A stretch of DNA of 60,381 nt from an uncultured Chromatiales bacterium (GCA_937128475.1 CAKZML010000273.1:1-60381), one strand, 5' to 3'. Counted from the first letter of the stretch, positions 2,286 to 14,351 are shown. Numbers and translations are program-made. Notes: generated from the letters alone by a model not told the origin.

Positions 2286-3154
2286 TCAAGCAACTCCCTG
2301 ATCCGGCCATGGGCATCGCGCCCGTAACCGCCGCCGAACAGATTGGCGTGATTCAAAACATGATAAAGCTGGTAAAGGTTGCGACGTGCTTCCCAGCCTG
2401 GCGATAGCGGCCACTCTGACTCGTAGGCCTGGTAAAAATCCCGACCGAATCCGCCAAACAAACCCGTCATGGCCAGGTCTGTTTCACGGTCGCCGTAATA
2501 CACCGCGGGATCAAATATTACCGGCTCGCCGTTATCCATGCGGCCCTGGTTACCCGCCCACAGGTCACCATGGAGCAAAGACGGTACCGGCTGGTAACCC
2601 TCAAAGAAGCTAGCCAGTGATTCCATCAGTTGCCGGCCGTCGGCCAGTAAGAATCCGAATCCGTTATCAGCCGCCAAGCGCAACTGAAATCCCATCCGTT
2701 GTTCACGAAAGAAGTCGATCCAGTTTTCCGTCCAGGGGTTGGGCTGGGGTGTGCTGCCAATGAAATTATCCCGGGTGAAACCAAACGCCTTGCCGGTATG
2801 ACGATGCAGTGCCGCCAGCCCCTTGCCCAGGCTGTCATCGCCAATCCCACCCGGGCCGGTCAGATCCAGCCATTCCAGCAGCAAGTAGGCCTTCTGATGC
2901 GCCTCTGCGCAGCCCAACACCCTGGGCACCCGTAGAGTACTGGTAGCAGCCAGCGCCTCCAGGCCCATGGCTTCGGCTTCAAATCCTGCCAGTTGGTCTG
3001 GTGTATTCAGCTTCATGAACACCGCGCCTGAATCCCCCTGCAGGCGGTAGGCATGGTGAATACTTCCACCGCCAATTTGGCGAACATTGTCCGGCAACAG
3101 GCGAAGGCCGGTCTGCTCGCCTATCTGGTGCAACAGTTCGCCCCAGTCAGTCAT
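2273..3154 (-). CDS. Fructosamine kinase family protein
   Basis: Motifs GGGSIH, FEAEA.GL, DNFIGSTPQ.N, PSLLHGDLWAGN, IFDPA.YYGDRE.DLAM and LYQLYH.LNHANLFG. Confidence 0.93.
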   Translation of the reverse strand: MTDWGELLHQIGEQTGLRLLPDNVRQIGGGSIHHAYRLQGDSGAVFMKLNTPDQLAGFEAEAMGLEALAATSTLRVPRVLGCAEAHQKAYLLLEWLDLTGPGGIGDDSLGKGLAALHRHTGKAFGFTRDNFIGSTPQPNPWTENWIDFFREQRMGFQLRLAADNGFGFLLADGRQLMESLASFFEGYQPVPSLLHGDLWAGNQGRMDNGEPVIFDPAVYYGDRETDLAMTGLFGGFGRDFYQAYESEWPLSPGWEARRNLYQLYHVLNHANLFGGGYGRDAHGRIRELLDQVS

Positions 3155-4059
3155 GGCCCCGGGGGTTCCCCGGCGTAGGCAGCATGCAGGGCTTCGGAGC
3201 GTCGACGTAATCGTCCGCCCAAGCCCGCCTCATCCAGGACCTCCAGCAAGAGTTCGAGATTCGGTGCGCTTCGCGCCACGTTTACTCCTTCCAGGGGCAT
3301 ATCATCGGCGATGACTGTCAGGCGCCGGGCCAGCATCGCATCCTCTTTGTGCTGACTGAGCTTGTCGAAAATTCTCGCCGCGCCACGCAAGGGTAGTTCC
3401 TTCACCCGGGGCAGGTCCTGGTAAAGATGTTCGAGGCTTTCAAATTCCGTGAGCAACACCGTCGCGGTTTTCTTGCCCACACCGGGAACCCCGGGGATGT
3501 TATCCACCGGGTCGCCAGTCAGCGCCAGGAAGTCAGCCATGCGTTCCGGCAGCACACCGAAAGCATCGGCAATCTGCCCATAGGCCAGGCGCCGGCGGCC
3601 AGAGTAATCCCAGAATTCATCGCCCGGTTTCAAGACCTGGGTCAGGTCCTTGTCCCGGGTCACCACCACGCAGGACCGTCCCTGTTCTCGCTGCAACCGA
3701 GCCAGGGTACCGATAATGTCATCGGCCTCGTAACGCGGGCTGGCCATCTCTGAAATACCCAGGGCCGCGGTGAATCGACGGCAAAGCCCAAACTGGGCTT
3801 CCAGTTCTGGCGGCGGCAATTCTCGATTCGCCTTGTAGGCGGGGAAAATTTCATTGCGGTACGAACTGGTGAGACTCTCATCGAACGCCACCGCCATATT
3901 GATCGGTTTCTCTTCGTCGATCACATCCAGCAGGAATCCGGCATAACCATAAAAGGCATTCACGGGCATTCCACCGGGGCCGGTCATGGCATCAGAAATT
4001 GAAAACCAGGCCCGGAATATCCAGACGCTTGCGTCAATCAGGTAAACAGCTTGGGACAC
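3151..4059 (-). CDS. Stand-alone 5'-3' exonuclease / flap endonuclease (PolA N-terminal-like, Xni/ExoIX family)
   Basis: Motifs LIDAS..IFRA, VAFD, YKANR, EADDIIGTLA, TRDKDL.Q and LTGD..DNIPGVPGVGKKTA; no polymerase domain. Confidence 0.92.
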   Translation of the reverse strand: MSQAVYLIDASVWIFRAWFSISDAMTGPGGMPVNAFYGYAGFLLDVIDEEKPINMAVAFDESLTSSYRNEIFPAYKANRELPPPELEAQFGLCRRFTAALGISEMASPRYEADDIIGTLARLQREQGRSCVVVTRDKDLTQVLKPGDEFWDYSGRRRLAYGQIADAFGVLPERMADFLALTGDPVDNIPGVPGVGKKTATVLLTEFESLEHLYQDLPRVKELPLRGAARIFDKLSQHKEDAMLARRLTVIADDMPLEGVNVARSAPNLELLLEVLDEAGLGGRLRRRSEALHAAYAGEPPGP

Positions 4060-6225: not shown

Positions 6226-7761
6226 TCACTTCCTGAACATTTCGAGCATGCGACGTGTTACGGCGAATCCGCCTGCGATATTGATGCTCGTTATCAATAC
6301 CGTTGCTGCAGCTATCCACATTGTCACGGTGTCCGTTGCACTAATCTGCATTAGCGCGCCGATCACGATGATGCTTGAAATCGCGTTGGTTACGCTCATC
6401 AAGGGCGTGTGCAGCGATGCCGACACATTCCAGATCACCATGTAGCCGACGAAGCATGCCAGCACGAACACCGTAAAGTGCGCCATGAAATCAGGCGGTG
6501 CCACGGCACCCAGACCCAGTAACGCGGCCGCAGCGATAATTACGCCAATAATCGGACCCGCCTTTGACGGTGGTTTTTTCTCAACAACAACAGGCTCCGG
6601 GGCAGGCTTGGTCTTTTTCGGTGCCGCCGAGAGCTTCGGTGCCGGCGGCGGCCAGGTGGTCTCGCCAGCCTTGCAAACTGTCGCGCCGCGAATCAGCTCG
6701 TCGTCCATATCCACGACGATGTTGCCGTCTTTTTCAGGAGTCAGGTCGGTGAGCAGGTGACGCAGGTTGGTCGCGTACAACTGGCTGGACTGTGCAGCCA
6801 GTCGGCTGGGCAGGTCGGTGTAACCAATGATTGTTACGCCATTGGCCTTGGCAACCTTGCCAGGCTCGGTCAGTTCGCAGTTACCGCCTTGCTCTGCGGC
6901 CAGGTCAACGATGACGCTGCCGTCCTTCATGGAGCTAACCATTTCCGCCGTGATCAGTCGCGGCGCTGGTTTGCCCGGGATCAGTGCGGTGGTAACAATG
7001 ATGTCGACGTCTTTTGCCTGTTCAGCGAACAGGGCCATTTCGGCCTCGATGAACTCGGCGCTCATGGTCTTGGCGTAACCGCCTTCGCCAGAGCCGTCCT
7101 CGTCCTTGAAGTCGAGCATAAGGAATTCGGCATTCATGCTCTCGACCTGTTCCTTCACCTCGGGGCGAGTGTCAAAGGCGCGAACGATCGCACCCATGCT
7201 GTTCGCGGCACCGATGGCAGCAAGGCCGGCAACGCCTGCACCGATCACGAGGACCTTGGCGGGGGGCACCTTGCCTGCGGCCGTGATCTGACCAGTGAAG
7301 AAGCGACCGAAGTGCTGGGCGGCCTCGACGATTGCGCGGTAACCCGCGATGTTCGCCATGGAACTCAGGGCATCCGCTTTCTGCGCACGTGAAATACGCG
7401 GCACGCTGTCCATTGCCAGCACGGTGGCGCCACTGTCGCTCAGCAGTTTCAGCATTTCGGGGTTCTGGGCCGGCCAGAGGAAACTGATAAGCGTCTTGCC
7501 AGCGGTAAGCCGGGAAGCTTCTTCTCGCTCCGGACCTCTGACCTTCATAATAATGTCGGCCTGGGACCAGACTTCGTCAGCCCCGGCGACGATCTCGCAG
7601 CCTGCGGCGCGATAAGCATCATCCGAGTAGTTCGCCTCGGCGCCAGCGCCAGACTCTACAAGAACGCTAAATCCGAGCTTTTGTAGCTGCCCGACAACGT
7701 CAGGTGTCGTCGCAACGCGTCGCTCACCCGCAAAAATCTCTTTCGGTACACCGATTTTCAT
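6226..7761 (-). CDS. pntA: NAD(P)+ transhydrogenase subunit alpha (single-chain type)
   Basis: Motifs MKIGVPKE...[42 protein letters not shown] and C-terminal membrane segment [13 protein letters not shown]. Confidence 0.98.
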
Positions 7762-8150
7762 TCGTAAGTCTCCATTTGGATCGCGGCAGTCTAACCGAAC
7801 GGCCCTCGGGTCTGCAAAGACGGAAAGTAGGCACTTTGGTAAGTGATTTACGAAGCAGAAGCCTTACATCGGGCCCCTCGCCGGCCACTTAATGAGTTCA
7901 CATAGAACTGGATGTGATCAATGCAAAACTCCAGGCCGGCAAGCCGGCCCTGGTCATCGATGCCAACCGTGGGGCCAAACCAATGGCCAGCAGCGGCTAC
8001 ACCTGACCGATCAGTGCACTGCCTGACCCCACTCCGGTTTGCTCTGGGCGATGGTCAAAAATGGAGCGTCGGACCTCATCCACCTGGGTGGGAAATCCTG
8101 GGCAAGCCCTCCGATCTCTACCCCCTGGAGAGGCGACTGGTCTTGCGCCC

Positions 8151-8191
8151 AACGCCTGCCGCGGCCACAGTGTCACGGCAGGCGTTTCTTT
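8151..8191 (+). terminator. Rho-independent terminator with no annotated + strand gene upstream
   Basis: AACGCCTGCCG (8151-8161) pairs with CGGCAGGCGTT (8176-8186), followed by TCTTT. Confidence 0.6.
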
Positions 8192-8376
8192 CGGCCCATG
8201 AATACCCGCGAGAACATTGACTCGCGGCCCGAAATAGCCGATTTTGCCGGCCTCTGGATGGATTTTGGCAAGGTCTAATTTCATCTTTGGTCTTGGCAAT
8301 TATGAATTTTATGCACATTACTGAAAATTTAAGTGTATTTTGCATGCAACTGAAGACTGACTCTTGGAAAGATTCA

Positions 8377-8423
8377 TAACTTATTGTTTTATATATAGTA
8401 TTAACTTCGCTCACTTTTTAACC
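8377..8423. promoter_or_regulatory. IHF-like and Fis-like sites in an AT-rich tract
   Basis: 8377-8389 reverse complement AAACAATAAGTTA is 1 mismatch from IHF consensus WATCAANNNNTTR. 8409-8423 GCTCACTTTTTAACC is 1 mismatch from Fis consensus GNTYAWWWWWTRANC. Confidence 0.5.
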
Positions 8424-8473
8424 AATCTGTAACAACCCCACTGATACAAGCCAGGAACCCCCTTTGTCCCAAG

Positions 8474-8508
8474 TCATCCACAGAGTTATCCACAGGAACT
8501 GTGGACAA
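8474..8508. promoter_or_regulatory. Cluster of three DnaA boxes (DARS-like core)
   Basis: TCATCCACA (8474-8482), 3 bp, perfect TTATCCACA (8486-8494), 5 bp, inverted TGTGGACAA (8500-8508). Confidence 0.8.
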
Positions 8509-8537
8509 AACCGACGCCGCCAGGGGGCCGATGGCCG

Positions 8538-10730
8538 ATGATTTTCCAGGTTGCCATCAATGCCCCCCTGCACGGGCTGTTTGATTACCTGCCGCCGGCG
8601 GACTGGACGGGCGACCAGGACGTCCTGGGAAAGCGCGTGGAAGTGTTTTTTGGGCGGAGTAAAACCACCGGGCTGATTGCCGGAGTGGCCGATGAGTCCT
8701 CGTTCCCGGCCTCCCGCCTGCGCAAGGTCAACCAAATCCTGGATAAGGACCCGGTGCTGAATGAGGAGATGCTGTCACTCCTGCTGTGGGCCGCGGCGTA
8801 CTACCAGCATCCGGTGGGCGAGGTGATCGCCACCGCTCTGCCCCTGGCCCTGCGCCAGGGAAAGCCCCTGGGTGGCATTGAACTGGTTTGGAGCCTGACC
8901 CCCAGCGGGGCGGAACAGGATTCTGCCGCCCTTGCCAGGCGAGCCCCCCGACAATGGGAGCTCTGGCAAAAACTCCAGCAATCTCCCGCTGGAATATCCG
9001 AAATCGTCCTGGCCGACCTTGCCCAGAACTGGCGTGACACCCTCAAGCGCATGCTGGACAAGGGCTGGGTGAGCAGCCGGGAAGAACAAATCAGCACTGA
9101 ATACCCGCTGGAGATTCATCCCGGGCCCACCCTCACCGGGGACCAGAGCACTGCAGTGGCGGAAATTATCGATGCTTGCTCCGGATTCAGTCCTTTCCTG
9201 TTATTTGGCGTCACCGGCAGCGGCAAGACCGAGGTGTACTTCGAGGCCATGGAAAAGGTCTTGCGGGAGGGGCGGCAAGTCTTGCTGCTGGTTCCCGAGA
9301 TTGGACTGACCCCCCAGTTACTGGCCCGGGTCAGGGCACGTTTCGATGGCAAGCTGGCAATTCTGCACTCGGGACTGGCAGACGGAGAGCGACTGGCATC
9401 CTGGCGTGATGCGGCCAGCGGCGCCGCCCACATCGTCATCGGCACCCGCTCCGCCGCCCTGGTCCCACTAGCCAGGCCCGGCATGATTATCGTCGATGAG
9501 GAACATGACCCCTCCTTTAAGCAATGGGAAGGATTTCGCTATTCGGCCAGGGACATGGCAGTTGCCCGTGCGCGGCGACACAAGGTTCCAGTCATCCTCG
9601 GCTCGGCGACACCTTCCCTGGAGTCCCTGTACAACGTGCATCGCGGGCGATACCGGCAACTGGATCTGCCCGAGCGGCCCGGCGCGGTCACCCACCCCGA
9701 GATTCGACTTGTGGACCTGCGGGCCCACGCAAGCAATGAAGGGCTATCCACCCCGCTGGTGCTGGCTGCAGAGAAACACCTGGCCAAGGGCGGCCAGGTA
9801 CTGATTTTCCTGAACCGGCGCGGCTATGCACCCACTTTGTTCTGCACCGGCTGCGGATGGACCGCCCGCTGCAAGCGCTGTGACGCAGGAATGGTGGTAC
9901 ATCACCGGGAACGTCGACTGCACTGCCACCACTGCGACACCCGGCGACCAATCCCCGAGACCTGCGAGGAATGCCACGAGGAACTGGCACCGGTGGGACA
10001 GGGCACCGAGCGAGTGGAAGAAACCCTCTCGCAACTGCTGCCGGACTACCCCCAGGTACGCATAGACAGGGACTCGACCCAACGCAAAGGCTCCATGGAG
10101 GGCCTGCTTGATCAAATCAGGTCCGGCCATGCCCGCATCCTTACCGGCACCCAGATGCTGACCAAGGGCCATGATTTTCCTGACGTCAGCCTGGTCGGGG
10201 TGCTCAACGCAGACCAGGGCCTGTTTGGCACGGACTTTCGTGCCAGCGAAAGACTTGCCCAGACCATTATCCAGGTGGCCGGGCGCGCCGGCCGGGCGGA
10301 AAGACCCGGGCTGGTGCTTGTGCAGACTCAATACCCGGAGCACCCCCTGCTGACCAAGCTGGTGACCGAAGGCTATGCGGCCTTCGCCGAAGCCGCCCTC
10401 GCCGAGCGCGAGGAATCAGGCTGGCCACCCTACAGTCACCTTGCACTGATGCGTGCCGAATCGCCCAGTATGCAGCAGACCCTTGCCTTTCTTGACGATG
10501 CCCGCCGGCTCCTGATACTGCCCGAGGACAACTCGGTTGGCGCCCTGGGACCGGCAGCGGCACCGATGGAAAAACGCGCCGGCCGTTTCCGCGCTCAGCT
10601 GCTGGTAGAGTCCAGGGACCGGTCAGCCTTGCACAAGCTGCTCACTCCCTGGCTGGCCCAGGTTCGGGAATTACCCGAGGGCCGCAAGGTTCGCTGGTCT
10701 ATAGATGTGGATCCCATCGAGCTTTTCTGA
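8538..10730 (+). CDS. priA: Primosomal protein N' (replication restart helicase)
   Basis: Motifs GVTGSGKTEVY, LVPEIGLTPQ, DEEHD, LGSATPSLES, LNRRGY, four CxxC pairs, QVAGRAGRA and WSIDVDP. Confidence 0.98.
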   Translation: MIFQVAINAPLHGLFDYLPPADWTGDQDVLGKRVEVFFGRSKTTGLIAGVADESSFPASRLRKVNQILDKDPVLNEEMLSLLLWAAAYYQHPVGEVIATALPLALRQGKPLGGIELVWSLTPSGAEQDSAALARRAPRQWELWQKLQQSPAGISEIVLADLAQNWRDTLKRMLDKGWVSSREEQISTEYPLEIHPGPTLTGDQSTAVAEIIDACSGFSPFLLFGVTGSGKTEVYFEAMEKVLREGRQVLLLVPEIGLTPQLLARVRARFDGKLAILHSGLADGERLASWRDAASGAAHIVIGTRSAALVPLARPGMIIVDEEHDPSFKQWEGFRYSARDMAVARARRHKVPVILGSATPSLESLYNVHRGRYRQLDLPERPGAVTHPEIRLVDLRAHASNEGLSTPLVLAAEKHLAKGGQVLIFLNRRGYAPTLFCTGCGWTARCKRCDAGMVVHHRERRLHCHHCDTRRPIPETCEECHEELAPVGQGTERVEETLSQLLPDYPQVRIDRDSTQRKGSMEGLLDQIRSGHARILTGTQMLTKGHDFPDVSLVGVLNADQGLFGTDFRASERLAQTIIQVAGRAGRAERPGLVLVQTQYPEHPLLTKLVTEGYAAFAEAALAEREESGWPPYSHLALMRAESPSMQQTLAFLDDARRLLILPEDNSVGALGPAAAPMEKRAGRFRAQLLVESRDRSALHKLLTPWLAQVRELPEGRKVRWSIDVDPIELF

Positions 10731-12571: not shown

Positions 12572-13114
12572 ATGCCACGGGACTATAAAAAAACTCGCCG
12601 CAAGAGCAAACAAGTCCCCGGGTGGGTCTGGATGTTATACGGCCTGGGCGTCGGCCTTGCCGTCGCCCTGTGGGTTTACCTGCACGATCGCCAGCCGGAA
12701 CACCTGGCCGGACCGACCGCCAAACCCCAGGCCTCTGTCAGCGCCAGCACCGCTGACGAAGAAGAAGAGGTGCCCAGCAGGCGCTTCGATTTTTACGAAA
12801 TGCTGCCCAGGTTCGAGGTGGTGATACCGGAAATGGAATCCGGCGCGCCCACCCCCAAGGATTCCCCGGTTGAAAAACCCGGCTCCTATGTCCTGCAAGC
12901 CGGATCGTTCAAGAATTTCGCCGATGCAGATCGGATGAAAGCACAGCTGGCCCTGCTGGGAGCAGAAGCCAACATTCAGCGCGTTACCATCGACGACAAG
13001 ACCTGGCACAGGGTGCGGGTGGGACCACTGACCCGCCTGGATGAGGTCAACAGCCTTCGAGAGCGGATGAGAAATGCAAAAATTGATGTCTTTGTGGTTC
13101 GACTCAGCGATTAA
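12572..13114 (+). CDS. SPOR-domain cell division protein (FtsN-like)
   Basis: N-terminal TM helix, FDFYEMLP motif, SPOR domain (YVLQAGSF...WHRVRVGP); typical position after argS. Confidence 0.88.
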   Translation: MPRDYKKTRRKSKQVPGWVWMLYGLGVGLAVALWVYLHDRQPEHLAGPTAKPQASVSASTADEEEEVPSRRFDFYEMLPRFEVVIPEMESGAPTPKDSPVEKPGSYVLQAGSFKNFADADRMKAQLALLGAEANIQRVTIDDKTWHRVRVGPLTRLDEVNSLRERMRNAKIDVFVVRLSD

Positions 13115-14351
13115 GCCCCACCGGCTAATCCTGACCCTGGCGCTGTGCTCCTGGATCGCAGGCTGTGCCACACCAATAGAAGAAAAACCCGCCCCCGTTG
13201 CCGAGGCTATAGTTCCCGCCCCGGTGGCAGAAGTCATACCTGAACCGGCACCCCCGCCTCCTCCGCCCAAACCGCCAATCACCATCGCCGCTGTGGGCGA
13301 CATGATGATTGGAACCGATTTTCCGACTAACCGGCTGGCCGATGACGACGGAAAAGGTCAGCTTTCCGAGGCCGGCATCTACCTGTCCCGGGCCCAGGTC
13401 GCCTTTGGCAATCTCGAGGGCGTGTTGATGGACGGCGGCGAACCGGCCAAGGTCTGCAAGGACCCGTCCCTGTGTTACCTGTTTCGCAGCCCCGCCCGGT
13501 ATGCAGAACACTTTCGTGATGCCGGCTTCGATGTGCTGAGCCTGGCCAACAACCACGCCCGGGACTTCGGTGAAGAAGGTCGGGACGCCAGCATGCTTGC
13601 CCTTGATGAGGTTGGCATTGCACACAGCGGCCGGGTGGGCGACGTGGCGTCCTGGCAGCAAGGCGACTACCGACTGGCCATGGCGGCATTCGCGCCCAAT
13701 ATCGACTCACACTCCATACATGACGAGGATGCCGCTGCCTGCCTGGTAAGCAAGCTGGCACAGGATCATGACCTGGTGCTGGTGTCTTTTCACGGTGGCG
13801 CAGAAGGTGAAGCCGCCATGCATGTGAGCGACGTTGAAGAATTTTATTACGGAGAATCCCGTGGCAACGTGGTCAGCTTTTCTCACCGGATGATTGATGC
13901 CGGCGCGGACATGGTGATCGGGCACGGACCTCATGTACCCAGGGCAATAGAGTTATACCGGGAACGCCTGATCGCCTACAGCCTGGGGAACTTCGCCACC
14001 TATTACGGGATTAGTGTTAGCGGCGACAAGGGTGTGGCGCCAATGCTGATGGCAACTGTCGATGAAGATGGTCGCTTGCTTGAGGGCAAGATCATTTCCT
14101 TCCGTCAGCGGCGTCCCGACGGTCCGCGACTGGATAGTCAGGAAACTGCTGCAACCCTGATCCGCAGTCTTACCCGAACGGACTTCAATGGCGGCGGCCT
14201 GGAGTTTACCGATGGAGGCAGCTTCAAGCCCTCGATCAGTCGTCAGCCCCAGCCTGGCGAAAATCCACGCCTAGCGCCCGCAGCTTGCGATACAGGTGAG
14301 TCCGCTCCATCCCAACCCGCTTCGCCAGCTGACCCACTTTCCCACCACTGA
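13074..14351 (+). CDS. CapA/PgsA-family metallophosphoesterase, predicted lipoprotein (start uncertain)
   Basis: Motifs AVGDMMIG, FGNLEG, LSLANNHARDFG, VSFHGGAE, VIGHGPHV and YSLGNF. Lipobox-like WIAGC followed by a Pro-rich linker. Confidence 0.88.
   Translation: MQKLMSLWFDSAIKPHRLILTLALCSWIAGCATPIEEKPAPVAEAIVPAPVAEVIPEPAPPPPPPKPPITIAAVGDMMIGTDFPTNRLADDDGKGQLSEAGIYLSRAQVAFGNLEGVLMDGGEPAKVCKDPSLCYLFRSPARYAEHFRDAGFDVLSLANNHARDFGEEGRDASMLALDEVGIAHSGRVGDVASWQQGDYRLAMAAFAPNIDSHSIHDEDAAACLVSKLAQDHDLVLVSFHGGAEGEAAMHVSDVEEFYYGESRGNVVSFSHRMIDAGADMVIGHGPHVPRAIELYRERLIAYSLGNFATYYGISVSGDKGVAPMLMATVDEDGRLLEGKIISFRQRRPDGPRLDSQETAATLIRSLTRTDFNGGGLEFTDGGSFKPSISRQPQPGENPRLAPAACDTGESAPSQPASPADPLSHH

Follow-up and report, generated by a model that had tools for sequence, protein, structure and literature searches.

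The question raised by this locus is what a compact group of DnaA boxes is doing directly in front of priA, the gene for the replication restart helicase, and whether it belongs with the DnaA-reactivating sequences (DARS), elements that have to our knowledge been studied almost only in E. coli. In the E. coli DARS complex ADP-DnaA releases ADP and can rebind ATP. DARS1 (bioD-uvrB) is active without accessory proteins and DARS2 (rppH-mutH) needs IHF and Fis. A sequence-only reading of the present DNA had proposed a DARS2 analogue linked to priA. The window, that is the whole stretch of DNA that was analysed (60,381 nt), is an entire 60 kb contig (C273) of an assembly of 307 contigs that totals 3.06 Mb with 57% G+C. 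The features on which the argument turns are given below, with positions counted from the first base of the window and offsets counted from the first base of DnaA box III.

8309 to 8317, plus strand: DnaA box IV, TTATGCACA, which fits TTWTNCACA and lies 165 nt 5' of box III.
8377 to 8389, minus strand: IHF-like site, TAACTTATTGTTT (AAACAATAAGTTA on the minus strand), one mismatch to TAANNNNTTGATW, at -97 to -85.
8409 to 8423, no strand assigned: Fis-like site, GCTCACTTTTTAACC, a perfect match to GNNYANNNNNTRNNC, at -65 to -51.
8424 to 8473, no strand assigned: spacer between the Fis-like site and the three clustered boxes (the trio), conserved in length and not in sequence.
8474 to 8482, plus strand: DnaA box III, TCATCCACA, one mismatch to TTATCCACA, separated from box II by GAG (3 bp).
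8486 to 8494, plus strand: DnaA box II, TTATCCACA, full consensus, separated from box I by GGAAC (5 bp).
8500 to 8508, minus strand: DnaA box I, TGTGGACAA (TTGTCCACA on the minus strand), one mismatch, head-to-head with box II.
8538 to 10730, plus strand: priA (replication restart helicase), directly 3' of the trio, identified by Pfam and NCBIfam.

The consensus sequences used in the scans, TAANNNNTTGATW for IHF and GNNYANNNNNTRNNC for Fis, were taken from PMC4245941. Direct scanning bears out the arrangement first proposed. Two tandem boxes with a 3-bp gap and one inverted box at a 5-bp gap occupy 8474-8508, and since priA starts at 8538 the trio ends 29 nt ahead of it. The IHF-like and Fis-like sites that had been placed on the tandem-box side are consensus matches, at positions that are conserved across loci. 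Box IV is an addition to the boxes first listed and is conserved in the four alignment rows that cover its position (the window and three same-genus genomes). The priA product carries the Pfam domains PriA_3primeBD, DEAD, Zn_ribbon_PriA and PriA_C and scores 964 bits against NCBIfam NF004067. The priA-linked module is non-coding; by Pfam, pntA and pntB lie upstream of it on the opposite strand and argS follows priA. Downstream of priA and argS are genes for a SPOR-domain protein (12572-13114) and then for a PGA_cap family protein (13074-14351), and we take this priA/argS/SPOR-domain neighbourhood to recall priA-cytR-ftsN of E. coli.

Searches for the trio used the 30-nt pattern CACA-N3-TTATCCACA-N5-TGTGGAHAA with up to two or three mismatches, depending on the search. 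At up to three mismatches it matches once in the window and not at all in 100 shuffles, and a chance origin of the trio is excluded. The genome as a whole (3.06 Mb) contains 26 perfect and 519 one-mismatch DnaA boxes, and clusters of at least three boxes within 60 bp occur only twice in it, as the priA trio and upstream of nrdA. The second of these clusters (contig C254:24004-24034; locus L171, 2505-2535) consists of three one-mismatch boxes repeated in tandem every 11 bp, after which comes an AT-rich tract. It lies about 300 nt ahead of the gene for the ribonucleotide reductase large subunit and is probably a classical DnaA-regulated nrd promoter.

In the DARS complex a full-consensus box II is a high-affinity site from which assembly is nucleated. 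PMC6868365 describes the DARS core as three boxes of which box I is inverted relative to II and III, with boxes I and II opposed across 5 bp; it gives box II of DARS1 as full consensus and the inter-box spaces as highly conserved. The trio has each of these characters, namely the inverted box I, the 5-bp and 3-bp spaces and the full-consensus box II. When the bioD-uvrB, rppH-mutH and priA-rpmE regions of E. coli K-12 were scanned directly, the core geometry proved to be the same at DARS1 and DARS2 as in the window, in agreement with the likeness that had been claimed. DARS1 has a 9-3-9-5-9 trio with two, zero and one mismatches in boxes III, II and I respectively. Its I-II spacer is GGAAT as against GGAAC here and, like the trio of the window, it lies upstream of a DNA repair or replication gene. 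A ChIP-seq table records binding of DnaA to DARS1 upstream of uvrB (PMC11317965). Unlike the present locus, where both accessory sites are present and conserved, DARS1 lacked both in the scan, an IHF consensus being absent over 330 nt and a Fis consensus from the neighbourhood of the core. DARS2 has the identical trio spacing and orientation (box mismatches 2, 1, 2 as against 1, 0, 1 here), is likewise non-coding and belongs to a host with Hda, IHF and Fis. Its neighbour is mutH where that of the present trio is priA, and position 208 of the host DnaA is Gln in E. coli and Gly here.

The tandem part of this arrangement is shared more widely. The III-3bp-II unit by itself is a generic 'double DnaA box' present at many E. 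coli replication and repair promoters, and purH, polA, datA and oriC all have it (Stringer et al., 2024; PMC11317965). As in the window, the second box of these sites is full consensus and is followed by G, and the GAG spacer occurs among them. In contrast to the window they are without an inverted third box at 5 bp, and fixed IHF and Fis sites are not reported for them. What is specific to DARS in the trio is thus its inverted box I.

The distribution of the trio pattern was determined in several genome samples. On the E. coli K-12 chromosome (4.64 Mb) the pattern at up to three mismatches matched only DARS1 and DARS2, with no control matches. At up to two mismatches it matched in 339 of 401 genomes of a class sample, and the reversed pattern gave a single match. 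In a phylum sample matches were present in 73 of 82 genomes of the same class and in 99 of 219 genomes of other classes, where on a reading of the phylum table they are concentrated in a few families. Perfect head-to-head box pairs, with spacers of 0-14 bp allowed, were present in 68 of 151 genomes. Among the 75 sites listed out of 93 the spacer was 5 bp in 73, 6 bp in two and of no other length; the spacing is specific. A DNA search with 8270-8560 as query matched in 31 of 41 genomes (the source genome and 40 relatives). It gave 30 loci, and in 27 of them, including that of the window, the trio was identified by script. Of the 24 best matches from outside the genus, 23 span essentially the trio alone; the remaining one, in G023, is to the AT-rich tract only, as are the matches in G029 and G040 within the genus. 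The tallies of the DNA search, class sample and spacer control include the unpublished genomes G022, G078, G180, G334 and G346, and any of these counts moves by one or two when they are dropped. G180 supplies two of the 75 listed spacer sites, and the G022 locus (L034) is among both the 82 loci and the 17 rpmE-linked loci considered below.

The surroundings of the trio were compared in 82 loci aligned by the first base of box III, comprising the window, a second copy from the same genome and 80 others with enough flanking sequence. These loci contain close relatives and a few near-duplicates and the counts therefore overstate independence. A match to a looser form of the IHF consensus (at most one mismatch, minus strand) is present at -105 to -94 in 58 of the 82 loci, and one to a stricter form at -101 to -95 in 41. 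Perfect Fis matches at -66, -65 and -64 number 31, 9 and 2 respectively, where the mean over the 82 loci is 0.16 per position. With up to one mismatch allowed the Fis consensus is found at -68 to -63 in 65 loci, and the information profile shows the same block. A fourth DnaA box, oriented as II and III, lies at -200 to -150 (mostly -181 to -167) in 62 of the 82 loci, and none of them has an inverted box upstream of the trio. Throughout the 82 loci the approximately 50 nt from the Fis site to the trio have a flat information profile, and the motifs on either side of them remain in gap-free register. By context, box IV occurs in 36 of 44 priA, 19 of 20 rpmE and 7 of 18 other loci, the IHF site in 30 of 44, 18 of 20 and 10 of 18, and the Fis site in 41 of 44, 11 of 20 and 13 of 18. 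Because the window carries all parts of the module, both the IHF site and the Fis site that had been proposed in it fall at conserved positions.

The second copy in the source genome is at contig C36:6672-6706 (locus L172, 2673-2707). It has the trio, an IHF-like site at -98 and a Fis-like site within one mismatch, and it carries all the accessory sites, box IV included. The gene about 175 nt downstream of it is rpmE (ribosomal protein L31; Pfam, 118 bits), and rdgB and a HemN-like gene precede it.

The order of these parts is not that of DARS2. The E. coli element, as scanned for the consensus sequences, reads core, IHF, Fis and box V, whereas the order here is core, Fis, IHF and box IV. The IHF site of DARS2 is at -87 to -75, on the same strand and on the same box-III side, and that of the window, at -97, is displaced from it by roughly one turn of the helix; the scan found a second IHF consensus in DARS2 at -71 to -59. 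The perfect Fis consensus of DARS2 lies at -125 to -111, beyond the IHF site, whereas that of the window, at -65, is found between core and IHF site. The distal box V of DARS2, a perfect box at -185, is inverted, whereas the distal box here is oriented as II and III. The DARS2 layout obtained by scanning fits the sites IBS1-2, FBS2-3 and box V described in PMC11724364 and PMC4245941. The essential Fis sites FBS2-3 of DARS2 are beyond the IHF site and overlap low-affinity DnaA boxes; the Fis-like site of the window is not so placed, and no conserved Fis consensus farther from the core than the IHF site was seen across the 82 loci.

The proteins of the DnaA cycle were identified in the source genome with NCBIfam models. 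DnaA (TIGR00362, 604 bits), Hda on contig C123 (TIGR03420, 246 bits; cut-off 194.8), IhfA (TIGR00987, 170 bits), IhfB (NF001222, 152 bits) and Fis (NF001659, 104 bits; cut-off 99) each score above the cut-off. The presence of Hda is what is expected of a host for DARS, one that makes ADP-DnaA through RIDA. The DnaA of this genome is 69% identical to that of E. coli, and L290, K243, F239, Q215, V211 and R285 are invariant between the two, as are further functional residues. According to PMC6868365, Gln208 and Leu290 of E. coli DnaA are both needed for ADP release at DARS. Leu290 is invariant in seven of seven aligned DnaA sequences. Position 208 (E. coli numbering) is Gly in the source genome (G000; L001) and in the same-genus G001, and among the other module-bearing genomes G058, G064, G285 and G434 it is Ala in two, Ser in one and Thr in one (L166-L170, including G001). 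The residues beside it at the proposed head-to-head interface are invariant. The absence of Gln208 is the main evidence against a plain transfer of the E. coli mechanism, and the natural variation at this position offers a direct test of the proposed head-to-head mechanism.

On balance we lean towards the reading of the locus as a DARS2-type DnaA-reactivating module that is modulated by IHF and Fis, possibly with DnaA control of priA in addition. This reading starts from the anatomy, conservation and protein factors observed, and it predicts that DnaA, IHF and Fis bind, that the DNA loops, that nucleotide is exchanged and that priA may be affected. The original proposal of a DARS2 analogue holds for the core geometry, for the IHF- and Fis-like sites on the box-III side and for the encoded Hda, IHF and Fis. 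Two features depart from E. coli, the placing of the Fis site on the core side of the IHF site and the Gly in place of Gln at DnaA residue 208. Gln208 is absent, the order of the Fis and IHF sites is swapped and the III-3bp-II unit is generic, and all three count against the DARS2 reading.

If the locus is a DARS2-type module, 8309-8508 would form a single nucleoprotein assembly of about 200 bp in four parts, with box IV, the IHF site, the Fis site and, across a spacer of fixed length, the trio. The trio would act as a DARS core that binds three DnaA molecules, those on boxes II and III head-to-tail and those on I and II head-to-head. IHF would introduce a sharp bend about 92 bp 5' of the trio and Fis would bind 51 bp 5' of it, and together they may fold the module and bring the DnaA bound to box IV beside the trio. 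Through such folding the activity of the module would depend, like that of DARS2, on growth phase and on the cell cycle. The module probably helps to time chromosome replication. As the trio ends 29 nt before priA, DnaA bound to it would probably sit on or just after the priA promoter, for which E. coli DARS1 upstream of uvrB provides a parallel. DnaA control of priA is plausible, though the hints of it are weak.

In the likelier of the alternatives the module serves transcription alone. DnaA on the trio would repress the priA and rpmE promoters, Fis and IHF would tune the repression and there would be no nucleotide exchange, so that synthesis of the restart helicase and of ribosomal protein L31 would be coupled to DnaA level and growth rate. 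We consider this unlikely. It draws on a survey of 80 priA loci from public genomes (PriA 48-92% identical), 77 of which have enough upstream sequence. The trio lies 0-99 nt before priA, always in the same orientation, in 31 of the 77, a distance that in the window is 29 nt, and it is absent from the other 46, among them loci labelled Steroidobacter or Steroidobacteraceae. It draws also on the relatives recovered by the DNA search, where besides the window's own there are 26 loci at the level of the order, 17 upstream of rpmE, eight upstream of priA and one in which the sequence ends early; at the priA and rpmE loci the order is constantly III-II-I and then the gene. The class-wide sample points the other way. 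Of the 30 loci returned from it the trio was recognised in 25, and the downstream gene is priA in seven, rpmE in two and neither in 16. For the 16 loci with neither gene, 20 of the 27 flanking ORFs were run against Pfam and found to include hydrolases, a rhomboid protease, two integrases, an Abi protein, MinC and transporters, and about half of the downstream genes are convergent. The module thus behaves like an autonomous element that favours two addresses. Distances within it are fixed, whereas the gap between trio and gene start differs among loci, by at least 100 nt for priA and over a range of about 80 to about 680 nt for rpmE. The link to priA that had been claimed is not a specific one, given the rpmE copy, the unrelated neighbours of 16 of 25 class-wide loci and the priA loci without a trio. 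Between priA and rpmE of E. coli neither a trio nor any DnaA box at up to one mismatch is present, so that the priA address is not common to E. coli.

The comparison with DnaA-controlled promoters is similarly divided. The E. coli DnaA regulon is compact, consisting of replication, repair and nucleotide genes with double boxes (PMC11317965), and the source genome has its own DnaA-box array ahead of nrdA; the absence of Gln208 is also in keeping with control of transcription alone. Against this, the full trio pattern in E. coli is confined to DARS1 and DARS2 and is missing from DnaA-regulated promoters, and a promoter scan found no sigma-70-like promoter near the trio on the plus strand. The one promoter-like site in that scan is on the minus strand (8327-8299), and such sites are no more frequent than in shuffles. 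Contigs from four metatranscriptome runs were also compared with the window; they are without strand, and RNA libraries can contain DNA, so that they give weak hints at most. One contig (X8) bridges the module from 8335 to 8643, and two others (X20 and X21) begin at 8494 and 8505, a weak hint of a priA 5' end inside the trio. These starts and the position of the trio at 0-99 nt before priA in 31 of 77 loci fit an operator role, and to that extent weigh against the DARS2-type reading.

A second alternative is that the module resembles datA, an IHF-dependent site of DnaA assembly that titrates DnaA or promotes hydrolysis of DnaA-ATP, and is thus a negative regulator. The plan of datA, as given in PMC5742627 and PMC4245941, corresponds to the box cluster, the fixed IHF site and the distal box that bending could return to the cluster, and the absence of Gln208 is again consistent. 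Chromosomal position in the same-genus G001 can be read in the same direction. Its contig C1 has dnaA at 822,669, the priA-linked module at approximately 712,350 and another match at 915,053, so that the matches flank dnaA on either side at about 110 kb and about 92 kb. In four single-contig genomes the matches are 108-1,000 kb from dnaA. The head-to-head pair of boxes I and II across 5 bp is however a hallmark of DARS, and E. coli datA, which shares with the window an IHF site and a box cluster, has no match to the trio even at up to three mismatches. Moreover the module has only four boxes, and Fis sites are described for DARS2 and not for datA in the sections available. A datA-like function accordingly seems to us improbable.

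The source genome provides a better candidate for the chromosomal origin, which as a rule shows a switch of GC skew and has the densest group of DnaA boxes, usually close to dnaA or mnmG. On contig C189 three perfect boxes lie upstream of dnaA (1684-1763) and three between dnaA and the next gene (3123-3265), with an AT-rich tract beside those downstream of dnaA, and these flanks are likely the oriC region; mnmG is on contig C39. A chance cluster, or a chromosomal or cryptic origin at 8.3-8.5 kb, to which the AT-rich tract adjoining the DnaA boxes might point, is scarcely credible and is rejected because that tract is explained by the IHF and Fis sites, none of the 100 shuffles matches a pattern that is conserved class-wide, cumulative GC skew falls steadily along the 60-kb contig with no lasting sign change at 8.3-8.5 kb, and dnaA with its six perfect boxes and mnmG are on the other contigs named. 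This agrees with the check proposed at the outset, by which a skew inversion at this place, together with autonomous replication, would have marked the locus as oriC.

With the DARS2-type reading thus placed, a broader one can be put forward tentatively. The module may be ancestral and class-wide in the Gammaproteobacteria, with about two copies at priA and rpmE, and DARS2 may be a degenerate, rearranged derivative that has moved to mutH; Gln208 would then be generally dispensable and the level of priA would be set by the same DnaA complex. If this is true, initiation control would be linked to restart capacity, and the recurrence of the priA address in itself points to a coupling of initiation control with replication restart. 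The conservation of DARS described in PMC6090056 and PMC4245941 is confined to relatives that keep the uvrB or mutH address, and in the literature on DARS with priA or rpmE, on DARS homologues and on the DnaA regulon no description of the present module was found. A DARS core with its own fixed layout of IHF site, Fis site and box IV in most sampled genomes of the class would, if the assignment is right, make DnaA recycling general in proteobacteria and not a feature of enteric bacteria only. The consensus of the module is much cleaner than that of the E. coli elements and should be useful for structural and biochemical work.

Trio matches were also seen in unusual arrangements. Several genomes have pairs of trios in tandem on the same strand, 325 to approximately 2,250 bp apart (G218:C19:216008/216333, G362:C206:51221/51546, G147:C3:2505603/2505959, G112:C72:14582/15005, G317:C3:19500/21751 and G127:C1:768191/770362), and copy number is high in G229 (11), G093 (8) and G328 (8). 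The matches in L129 and L135 adjoin phage-type integrase genes and that in L137 adjoins an Abi-like gene; some copies of the trio may ride on mobile elements.

A second group of ends among the metatranscriptome contigs lies upstream of the trio. Contigs X19 and X20, which come from different studies, both end at 8361, and X19 and X21 begin at 8020 and 8021, a weak hint of a discrete RNA that would span 8020-8361 and be about 340 nt long. This candidate overlaps box IV and ends 16 nt before the IHF-like site, and its folding z-scores are -2.5 on the plus strand and -1.5 on the minus strand. In three of the four runs there are stretches without an RNA contig, and these are evidence of nothing. 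A known structured RNA was rejected, Rfam giving no match at E of up to 1 over 7600-8700 and, at E of up to 10 over 7990-8400, only four matches to eukaryotic snoRNA and miRNA families that are far below threshold. Small proteins were likewise rejected, since the ORFs of 98-100 aa that overlap 7921-8414 match no Pfam family and the short ORFs in 7762-8300 look like noise. At 8153-8190, with no recognisable gene ahead of it, an 11-bp G+C-rich inverted repeat with a loop of 13-14 nt is followed on the plus strand by TTTCTTTC; this repeat is terminator-like and is kept in a same-genus genome.
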